From Escherichia coli (GTDB taxonomy: Bacteria > Pseudomonadota > Gammaproteobacteria > Enterobacterales > Enterobacteriaceae): a DNA stretch of 64,000 nt. The stretch is taken from NCBI RefSeq assembly GCF_003334785.1, contig NZ_QOWV01000015.1; one strand, 5' to 3'. Positions within the stretch are counted from its first letter, which is position 1; every line of letters begins with the position of its first letter. This document shows, piece after piece, positions 2,898 through 5,327 of the stretch. The position numbers and the translations under genes were made by a program. Below the pieces are notes generated by a model. It saw only the letters and a list, made by a program, of their open reading frames with translations. It was not told the origin of the DNA and did not search any database.

Positions 2898-5327
2898 ATG
2901 ACATTAACAAGACGTGAATTTATTAAACACAGCGGTATTGCCGCTGGAGCGCTGGTGGTGACATCGGCAGCACCGCTACCCGCATGGGCAGAAGAGAAGG
3001 GCGGTAAAATCCTCACCGCGGGACGCTGGGGAGCGATGAACGTAGAAGTGAAGGACGGCAAGATTGTTTCTTCGACAGGCGCGCTGGCGAAAACCATACC
3101 GAACTCCTTACAGTCTACGGCGGCGGATCAGGTACACACCACGGCGCGTATTCAGCATCCGATGGTGAGAAAAAGCTATCTCGATAATCCACTGCAACCG
3201 GCGAAAGGTCGAGGCGAAGATACCTATGTACAGGTGAGCTGGGAACAAGCATTAAAACTGATTCATGAGCAACACGATCGTATTCGTAAAGCTAACGGAC
3301 CATCGGCCATTTTTGCCGGATCTTACGGCTGGCGCTCTTCTGGCGTGTTGCATAAAGCGCAAACCTTACTGCAACGTTATATGAACCTCGCGGGCGGTTA
3401 TTCCGGGCATAGCGGCGATTATTCAACCGGGGCAGCACAGGTGATCATGCCGCATGTGGTCGGTTCTGTAGAGGTGTATGAACAGCAGACCTCCTAGCCG
3501 CTGATTCTGGAAAACAGCCAGGTTGTGGTGCTGTGGGGGATGAACCCGCTGAATACCTTAAAAATTGCCTGGAGCAGTACCGATGAGCAAGGGCTGGAAT
3601 ACTTCCATCAGCTGAAAAAATCTGGCAAACCAGTGATTGCCATTGATCCTATCCGCTCCGAAACCATTGAGTTCTTTGGCGATAATGCCACCTGGATCGC
3701 GCCGAATATGGGCACCGACGTGGCACTGATGTTAGGGATTGCGCATACCCTGATGACACAAGGCAAACACGATAAAGTGTTCCTTGAAAAATACACCACC
3801 GGGTATCCGCAGTTTGAAGAATATCTGACAGGTAAGAGCGATAATACTCCGAAGAGCGCGGCCTGGGCGGCGGAAATTACTGGCGTACCGGAAGCGCAGA
3901 TAGTCAAACTCGCTGAACTGATGGCGGCGAATCGCACAATGCTGATGGCAGGCTGGGGAATTCAGCGCCAGCAATATGGTGAACAGAAACACTGGATGCT
4001 GGTGACGCTGGCGGCGATGTTAGGGCAGATTGGTACACCGGGCGGCGGTTTTGGTTTCTCTTATCATTACTCCAATGGTGGCAACCCGACACGTGTTGGC
4101 GGCGTGCTGCCGGAAATGTCTGCGGCGATTGCCGGACAGGCCAGCGAGGCCGCTGATGATGGCGGAATGACGGCGATTCCTGTTGCCCGTATCGTCGATG
4201 CGCTGGAAAATCCTGGCGGCAAATATCAGCATAACGGTAAAGAGCAAACGTATCCGAATATCAAAATGATCTGGTGGGCGGGTGGCGGTAACTTTACCCA
4301 TCACCAGGATACTAATCGTCTGATTAAAGCATGGCAGAAACCGGAGATGATCGTCGTTTCTGAATGCTACTGGACCGCAGCTGCTAAACATGCAGATATC
4401 GTATTACCGATCACCACATCGTTTGAGCGCAATGACTTAACGATGACCGGTGATTACAGCAACCAGCATATTGTGCCGATGAAGCAGGTTGTTGCTCCGC
4501 AATTTGAAGCGCGAAACGATTTTGATGTGTTTGCCGATCTTGCGGAATTACTCAAACCTGGCGGAAAAGAGATCTATACCGAAGGTAAAGATGAAATGGC
4601 GTGGCTGAAATTTTTCTATGATGCCGCTCAGAAAGGTGCCCGTGCGCAACGCGTGACTATGCCGATGTTTAATGCCTTCTGGCAGCAAAATAAACTGATC
4701 GAAATGCGCCGCAGCGAGAAGAACGAACAGTACGTTCGTTATGGTGATTTCCGCGCCGATCCGGTGAAAAATGCGCTGGGTACGCCAAGCGGCAAAATTG
4801 AGATTTACTCCAAAACGCTGGAAAAATTTGGCTATAAGGATTGCCCGGCACACCCAACCTGGCTTGCGCCTGATGAGTGGAAGGGTACCGCCGACGAGAA
4901 GCAGTTGCAGCTTCTGACCGCACATCCGGCACACCGTTTACATAGTCAGCTTAACTATGCGGAACTGCGTAAAAAATATGCGGTTGCAGATCGTGAACCA
5001 ATCACTATTCACACCGAAGATGCTGCTCGCTTTGGTATTGCGAATGGTGATCTGGTGCGTGTGTGGAACAAACGTGGTCAGATTCTGACAGGCGCGGTGG
5101 TGACTGACGGGATCAAAAAAGGCGTGGTATGCGTGCATGAAGGTGCATGGCCAGATCTGGAAAATGGCTTGTGTAAAAACGGCAGTGCGAACGTGTTAAC
5201 GGCGGATATCCCCAGCTCGCAGCTGGCAAATGCCTGTGCCAGTAACTCTGCGCTGGTGTATATCGAAAAATATACGGGCAATGCGCCGAAGTTAACGGCG
5301 TTTGATCAGCCAGCTATTCAGGCATAA
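2898..5327 (+). pseudogene. torZ: TorZ, TMAO/N-oxide reductase III catalytic subunit (molybdopterin), interrupted by in-frame amber TAG at 3495-3497
   Basis: Track ORFs 2880-3497 and 3525-5327 are the same frame; Tat signal [17 protein letters not shown]; sequence ...EQQTS*PLILENS... where TorA-family proteins have EQQTSWP. Confidence 0.8.

Follow-up and report, generated by a model that had tools for sequence, protein, structure and literature searches.

The torZ gene of a 64,000-nucleotide stretch of Escherichia coli DNA (contig NZ_QOWV01000015.1 of RefSeq assembly GCF_003334785.1; hereafter the window) is interrupted by a premature amber codon, and we consider it very probable that the allele is real, is inherited vertically and has lost its function, which makes this torZ a young pseudogene. 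In E. coli K-12, torZ (bisZ, b1872) encodes the catalytic subunit of TorYZ, a member of the dimethyl sulfoxide (DMSO) reductase family. According to the sequence of events that we propose, a G-to-A transition at position 3496 would have turned TGG, the codon of the conserved Trp200, into the amber codon TAG, at which normal ribosomes would stop and release a fragment of 199 residues. This fragment would keep the twin-arginine translocation (Tat) signal and approximately the first 170 residues of the mature protein, while about three quarters of the enzyme would be lost, and with them the greater part of the molybdopterin-binding domains. No active periplasmic TorZ S-/N-oxide reductase would then be made, and the intact TorY cytochrome would be left without its partner. 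The allele appears to be confined to one clonal lineage plus at least one apparently independent occurrence on a K-12-like haplotype, and it would persist because torYZ is presumably dispensable under most conditions. The features discussed below are compiled in Table 1.

The original prediction, made from the sequence of the window, had described two open reading frames (ORFs), 2880-3497 and 3525-5327, as a single frame split by the TAG at 3495-3497. Translation of positions 2898 to 5327 confirmed this: the starts of both ORFs are divisible by 3, and the sequence around the stop reads GAA CAG CAG ACC TCC TAG CCG CTG. Since codon 200 is TGG in K-12 MG1655, WEM25 and JJ2434, this codon of the window differs from theirs by a single G-to-A change at 3496, and the comparison with MG1655 and WEM25 bears out the expectation that the codon should specify Trp and that one transition gives the amber codon. 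The closest intact allele, that of WEM25, differs from the window torZ at only two bases, 3496 and 5241. The second difference replaces Gly782 by Ser. It was considered as a sign of decay following inactivation and dropped, because residue 782 varies across homologs (G, P or A), which makes the substitution uninformative. The Trp at the position of the stop is kept in solved homologs, within EVYEQQTSW in MtsZ of Haemophilus influenzae (Protein Data Bank entry 7l5i) and within EVYEQQTAWP in the DMSO reductases of Rhodobacter; the conserved EQQTSW motif that had been noted at the stop is thus present in 7l5i and, as EQQTAW, in the Rhodobacter enzymes.

The 2,430-bp torZ of the window matches an annotated torZ in 5,426 of 5,426 complete E. 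coli genomes, with an identity of 95-100% in all but one, and at least 80% of the gene is kept in one piece in 5,308 of them. The torZ of K-12 lies at the same locus and has the same length of 809 codons, the same Tat signal and the same Pfam domains. It is 97.7% identical to the window gene at the nucleotide level (55 differences in 2,430 bp, 46 of them synonymous); the window has TAG and not TGG at codon 200 and, in addition, 8 amino-acid polymorphisms. An uninterrupted precursor frame of approximately 809 amino acids is not found in the window owing to the TAG at codon 200. Because its frame is interrupted, we file the locus as a torZ pseudogene and not as a functional member; as in other nonsense pseudogenes, the frame stops early where the orthologs have a sense codon.

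To determine how widespread the allele is, the complete genomes were searched with a 57-mer centred on the TAG. Exact matches were obtained in 10 of the 5,426 genomes, and about 4,784 others matched with one or two mismatches. The TAG allele therefore has a frequency of about 0.2% among complete genomes and is not the common reference state; had it been, this would have refuted the original prediction by its own terms. The carriers were sampled by independent laboratories; their sources are human and pig hosts, a cloacal swab and wastewater, and the isolates come from, among others, the USA, Viet Nam and Cuba. A synthetic query representing the TAG version of a divergent B2-type haplotype, which is found in 602 genomes, gave zero exact matches. 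Over the whole 2,430 bp, the window torZ is 100% identical to the torZ of 8 complete genomes. In a collection of 15 billion proteins, the exact 199-amino-acid N-terminal product (P0001) was found on 659 contigs from NCBI, ENA and Logan (977 index blocks). In both FDAARGOS_1248 and PK5, the NCBI Prokaryotic Genome Annotation Pipeline (PGAP) records an 'internal stop' in torZ and classes the gene as a pseudogene. Public annotation has thus marked the defect before, and the allele is nothing out of the ordinary for its type.

A search with the 25-kb flank returned eight of the carriers as the best matches at 99.9-100% identity, and for this reason we regard them as one clone; in all, nine of the 10 carrier genomes share the flanking haplotype and belong to it. 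The window is collinear with FDAARGOS_1248, and the two differ by 5 single-nucleotide polymorphisms (SNPs) over 64 kb (positions 24150, 40498, 52301, 52420 and, in ptrB, 32283), so that the window stems from a very close relative of FDAARGOS_1248 and not from that assembly itself. The same TAG is also found in PK5 and in the draft genome GCA_045909095 (L006), where it sits on a K-12-like haplotype at a distance of 53 differences; the closest distinguishing sites lie 107 bp before and 43 bp after the mutation. This pattern points to either an independent origin of the TAG in PK5 and L006 or its transfer on a very short recombination patch. A separate case is JKHS016 (NZ_CP147059.1), whose torZ is 100% identical including the TAG, yet which falls outside the best 30 matches for the 25-kb flank; its background may have been rearranged, disrupted by an insertion or formed by recombination.

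The 199-amino-acid product was expected to carry the Tat signal and to lack most of the catalytic domain, and this was found to be the case: it has the motif TRREFIK and matches the Pfam families PF18364 and PF00384. The serine of its DYS motif is presumably the molybdenum ligand. The stop cuts through PF00384, of which the N-terminal piece loses the greater part, together with the whole of PF01568, so that 610 of the 809 residues are missing from it. The downstream ORF comprises the remainder of the Molybdopterin domain and the Molydop_binding domain, is devoid of a signal peptide and is called as a separate gene with PF00384 and PF01568 in public assemblies, where fragments of the TorZ N-terminus go by the name 'twin-arginine translocation signal domain-containing protein'. 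Since 610 of 809 residues are gone and PF00384 is divided, we infer that the strain is probably without active TorZ. Intact K-12 TorZ matches 7l5i (E=5e-301) as well as DMSO and trimethylamine N-oxide (TMAO) reductases. The entry 7l5i, MtsZ/TorZ of H. influenzae, is a periplasmic methionine sulfoxide reductase and the closest solved homolog, with which TorZ shares EVYEQQTSW. MtsZ is a functional enzyme that supports virulence in H. influenzae (PMC5122715), whereas the window allele ends before three quarters of the fold.

Several other explanations of the interrupted frame have to be weighed. As a single-base departure from the consensus, the TAG might be a sequencing or assembly error with TGG as the true codon, a possibility that had been raised at the outset. 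However, independent laboratories recovered the identical allele in 10 complete genomes, from different hosts and countries, the truncated product recurs on the 659 contigs across NCBI, ENA and Logan, and the carriers share a 25-kb haplotype, as inheritance predicts. An error is thus practically inconceivable: the stop is real and heritable and not an artefact, and a strain-specific null allele is the best supported of the alternatives that had been put forward. It is likewise conceivable that translation restarts at one of two in-frame GTG codons (3525 or 3528), 9-10 codons past the stop, from which gene callers predict a product of 599-600 amino acids, and that the 199- and 600-amino-acid pieces assemble into an active split enzyme, which would be exported by Tat hitch-hiking, given that the Tat pathway can export pre-assembled complexes. 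Inspection by eye revealed no obvious Shine-Dalgarno sequence before the GTG codons, although no formal scan was made, and the break lies inside PF00384 at a conserved motif. Moreover, torZ is truncated at many other positions, which would be unexpected if this particular split were selected, and L007, a metagenome contig of the TAG lineage, carries a further stop within the C-terminal piece, where codon 299 has changed from TAC to TAA. We therefore regard a functional split enzyme as extremely unlikely.

The amber codon could also be read by a suppressor tRNA or be recoded, so that full-length functional TorZ would still be made. In line with this, the 600 codons downstream of the stop are still open in the window, but an open frame is expected in any case because the pseudogene is young, eight carriers being 100% identical. 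supF (tyrT with a CUA anticodon) was found in 0 of 5,426 complete genomes. The supE allele (glnV with a CUA anticodon) occurs as an exact match in 155 genomes; the 60 of these that were listed bear K-12-type strain names and include no TAG carrier. Since 60 of 155 genomes are insufficient to exclude carriers, this search by itself was set aside and replaced by a reading of glnV in the carrier VE-F10, where a walk to the glnV operon showed normal CUG anticodons in both glnV and glnX. The serU gene of FDAARGOS_1248 has its normal CGA anticodon, which speaks against supD there, and the number of tRNA genes in the 64-kb window is zero. In addition, the TAG lacks the conservation that would be expected of a recoded position, and the second stop gained by L007 is predicted by decay and not by functional read-through. 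The suggestion of an amber-suppressor background therefore found no support in supF, glnV, glnX or serU, and read-through at a functional level is very unlikely. Recoding by pyrrolysine or selenocysteine was dismissed on general grounds: we know of no UAG-pyrrolysine machinery in E. coli, and selenocysteine uses UGA. With regard to the supE genomes themselves, some are labelled as coming from human, chicken, mouse gut or oil palm, though their strain names look like K-12 laboratory derivatives, and in each of the 60 listed the annotated feature at the suppressor allele is 'none'.

A few points weigh against the reading of the window torZ as a loss-of-function allele. The absence of TorZ activity is deduced from the sequence, and the suppressor checks cover three loci, in close relatives of the source genome. 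Furthermore, E. coli ribosomes terminate comparatively weakly at UAG when the next base is C, which favours read-through to some extent, and basal read-through could yield traces of full-length protein.

We next considered the origin of the mutation. The mutated base lies in a former Dcm site, a context that was absent from the original prediction. Deamination of 5-methylcytosine is a classic route to amber mutations at CCWGG sites, and the first report of such hotspots is reportedly that of Coulondre, Miller and colleagues on lacI, from 1978. The torZ stop resembles amber mutations of this kind in that the site is CCTGG, in that a C-to-T change of the inner cytosine on the bottom strand creates TAG and in its dcm and vsr background. 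It differs from them in being a natural polymorphism and not part of a laboratory spectrum, and in that non-Dcm sites of torZ recur as well. A literature search for a reference on Dcm amber hotspots returned nothing specific. Spontaneous deamination of the bottom-strand 5-methylcytosine at CCTGG may have given rise to a T:G mismatch that escaped very-short-patch repair by Vsr. This origin is plausible because the mutated G pairs with a Dcm-methylated cytosine and because dcm (WP_001157246.1) and vsr, both of which lie outside the window, are intact in FDAARGOS_1248, 5 SNPs from the window. In torZ, 292 different substitutions would create a stop. GC-to-AT transitions account for 87 of them, and only 7 of those transitions hit a Dcm-methylated position, of which the gene has 18.

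Three lines of evidence for a Dcm hotspot were tried, and none of them proved it. The first, rejected as specific evidence, was homoplasy, as TAG at codon 200 is found on two haplotypes and, at the Dcm site W225, TAG on at least five and TGA on 2; however, the non-Dcm controls recur too, Q196 TAG on 3 haplotypes and Q231 TAA on 2. The presence of predicted fragments and the number of contigs on which they occur tell something about the dispensability of torZ but were uninformative about a hotspot: 9 of 10 fragments exist whatever their context, and the counts at Dcm sites (659, 48 and 30) and at non-Dcm sites (308, 122, 62, 47, 36, 27, 21 and 0) show no difference (p=0.25). As an internal control we compared TAG with TGA at TGG codons, excluding partial genes at contig ends, which made up many of the 'fragments'. 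The TAG:TGA ratios were 4:0 at W200 and 11:2 at W225, both Dcm codons, and 6:1 at W213, 3:3 at W145 and 2:4 at W115, which are non-Dcm codons. The pooled ratios of 15:2 and 11:8, respectively, differ in the expected direction, but Fisher's p was 0.065 with non-independent contigs, and the non-Dcm codon W213 is itself skewed to TAG. The recurrence at Q196 and Q231, the similar contig counts, the pooled ratio and the bias at W213 all argue against a special role of Dcm. Deamination at the Dcm site nevertheless agrees with each feature of this mutation that was examined, and we hold it about as likely as not to be its source.

The amber codon at position 200 is one of many natural torZ nulls. Nonsense fragments at 9 of 10 further GC-to-AT sites in torZ are present in public data, on 21-308 contigs each, and many torZ fragments were confirmed in the DNA as true stops on long contigs. 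In E. coli and Shigella, natural nonsense codons were found at positions 115, 145, 155, 159, 181, 196, 197, 208, 213, 225 and 231, along with frameshifts. These alleles are comparable to the one in the window in that they affect the same gene with the same consequence, are found in few lineages each and in several cases carry second-site stops; the W200 amber allele differs in being the most widely sampled of those tested (659 versus 21-308 contigs). Matched sites in two neighbouring genes, aspS, which is essential, and zwf, five in each gene, gave 0-3 contigs, all labelled 'partial', so that nonsense in torZ is 10 to over 100 times commoner (Mann-Whitney p=4e-4). This speaks for dispensability, but the comparison was made with the protein haplotype of the window only, which may not be the majority haplotype. 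Intact torZ haplotypes have a ratio of nonsynonymous to synonymous substitution rates (dN/dS) of 0.03-0.05. Taken together, torZ is kept in the species over the long term and is lost often and transiently in single lineages.

Further inactivating changes were seen in individual genomes and contigs. In B19374 (NZ_CP142915.1), torZ is broken by an element of the IS3 family, another independent inactivation. L022 combines the Q231 TAA with a TAG in place of CAG at codon 470, which belongs to the 7 sites where Dcm deamination is predicted to give a stop, and L047 has a second TAG at codon 774 in addition to the W213 TAG. In the torZ-null contigs L012, L028 and L038, torY is shortened or split (322 amino acids; 294 + 86 amino acids; 289 amino acids), and L063 contains a gene for a Y1 transposase of the IS200/IS605 type between cutC and torY (600-1058). 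In some lineages the operon may therefore be decaying as a whole.

A study on MtsZ (PMC5122715) states, citing Gon et al. (2000), that torYZ alone gives no growth on TMAO and that its physiological role is unknown. By itself, torYZ supports no TMAO respiration unless it is overexpressed. TorZ has six molybdenum-containing counterparts in E. coli, which makes seven S-/N-oxide reductases in all; these are partly redundant, and torZ is modestly induced by hypochlorous acid (HOCl), copper and paraquat (PMC12096835). A literature search for torZ pseudogenes in E. coli returned nothing specific. The frequent loss of torZ despite constraint fits a still unknown and apparently conditional role of TorYZ, and we infer that the loss is nearly neutral.

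Alternatively, the loss of torZ might be adaptive and positively selected in some niches, an explanation that competes only with the neutral, dispensable part of our interpretation and not with the loss of function as such. The excess of torZ nonsense fragments over matched sites would be in agreement with this, although the genes used for comparison were aspS and zwf and not other dispensable genes. Likewise, stops at several of the sites are seen on more than one haplotype, the spread of the W200 and Q231 alleles extends to hundreds of contigs, and torY is disrupted as well in L012, L028 and L038. Against this stand the strong long-term purifying selection on intact haplotypes that is evident from their dN/dS, the presence of torZ sequence in every complete genome, with at least 80% in one piece in nearly all of them, and the rarity and young age of every single null allele. 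The same pattern would result if the loss were mildly deleterious or conditionally neutral, and we consider adaptive loss unlikely. A more specific version holds that torZ is repeatedly lost under positive selection, with Dcm deamination (codons 200, 225, 470 and others) supplying a disproportionate share of the mutations. The coexistence of strong constraint with common null alleles would fit repeated selected loss, but this combined version seems decidedly unlikely to us. If it were true, it would indicate that TorYZ, a poorly understood reductase, is costly in certain niches. Our preferred interpretation remains that of a young pseudogene whose loss is of little consequence under most conditions.

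With respect to the genetic neighbourhood, the gene order is yecM-cutC-torY-torZ-cmoB-cmoA, the conserved context in which torY lies directly upstream of torZ. The torY gene had been predicted to be intact, and this is indeed the case: its product in FDAARGOS_1248 (WP_001214316.1) has the same accession as in WEM25, a TGG strain. The operon ends with torZ, and the next gene, cmoB, is convergent to it, so that no polarity on downstream genes is expected. The small RNA MicL is present in full length (Rfam RF02654, 370 bits) at 1157-1464 on the plus strand, inside the 3' part of cutC; it ends just upstream of the torY promoter region and is a standard feature of E. coli. Rfam features of the window were taken at the gathering score, and all of them are expected core-genome features. 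ptrB (31260-33320, plus strand) was examined as a second pseudogene and rejected: its 'internal stop' is annotated in FDAARGOS_1248, where CAA has become TAA by a C-to-T change at the equivalent of window position 32283, and the window has an intact CAA at 32281-32283.

Table 1. Positions of torZ, its interruption and other features in the 64,000-nucleotide window.
Feature	Position	Strand	Remarks
torY, pentahaem NapC/NirT-type cytochrome c, first gene of torYZ	1773..2873	+	Intact, 366 amino acids; ORF list and RefSeq annotation of FDAARGOS_1248
torZ pseudogene	2898..5327	+	809 codons plus terminal TAA; sole interruption is amber codon 200 (translation)
Tat (twin-arginine) signal peptide region	2898..2990	+	Read from the translation; motif TRREFIK; putative cleavage site; kept on the truncated product
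ORF of the 199-amino-acid N-terminal fragment	2898..3497	+	Tat signal, Molybdopterin_N domain, start of Molybdopterin domain, DYS motif
Former Dcm site	3493..3497	.	Wild type CCTGG (CCWGG), window CCTAG; opposite 3496, on the bottom strand, lies the inner methylated cytosine
Premature amber stop TAG replacing Trp200 (TGG)	3495..3497	+	Mutated base 3496, G to A
Residual downstream ORF	3525..5327	+	600 amino acids from GTG 3525 (599 from GTG 3528); ORF list
Codon 782 AGT (Ser), wild type GGT (Gly)	5241..5243	+	G-to-A transition; only other torZ change private to the lineage
ES036, in REP-like repeats just downstream of torZ	5400-5442	-	Rfam
naRNA4	15753-15828	+	Rfam
SraC/RyeA and SdsR/RyeB antisense pair	36855-36999	both	Rfam
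cspA-type thermoregulator leader, upstream of the csp gene called cspE by PGAP	52488-52948	+	Rfam

For practical purposes, FDAARGOS_1248, an FDA-ARGOS reference genome, and the clone to which it belongs should be treated as TorZ-null in studies of TMAO, N-oxide or sulfoxide reduction. In annotations, the locus is best entered as one pseudogene and not as two genes, as in the 'hypothetical protein' calls of VE-F10. Beyond the single strain, the recurrence of common torZ null alleles beside strong constraint on the intact gene is of modest population-genetic interest.

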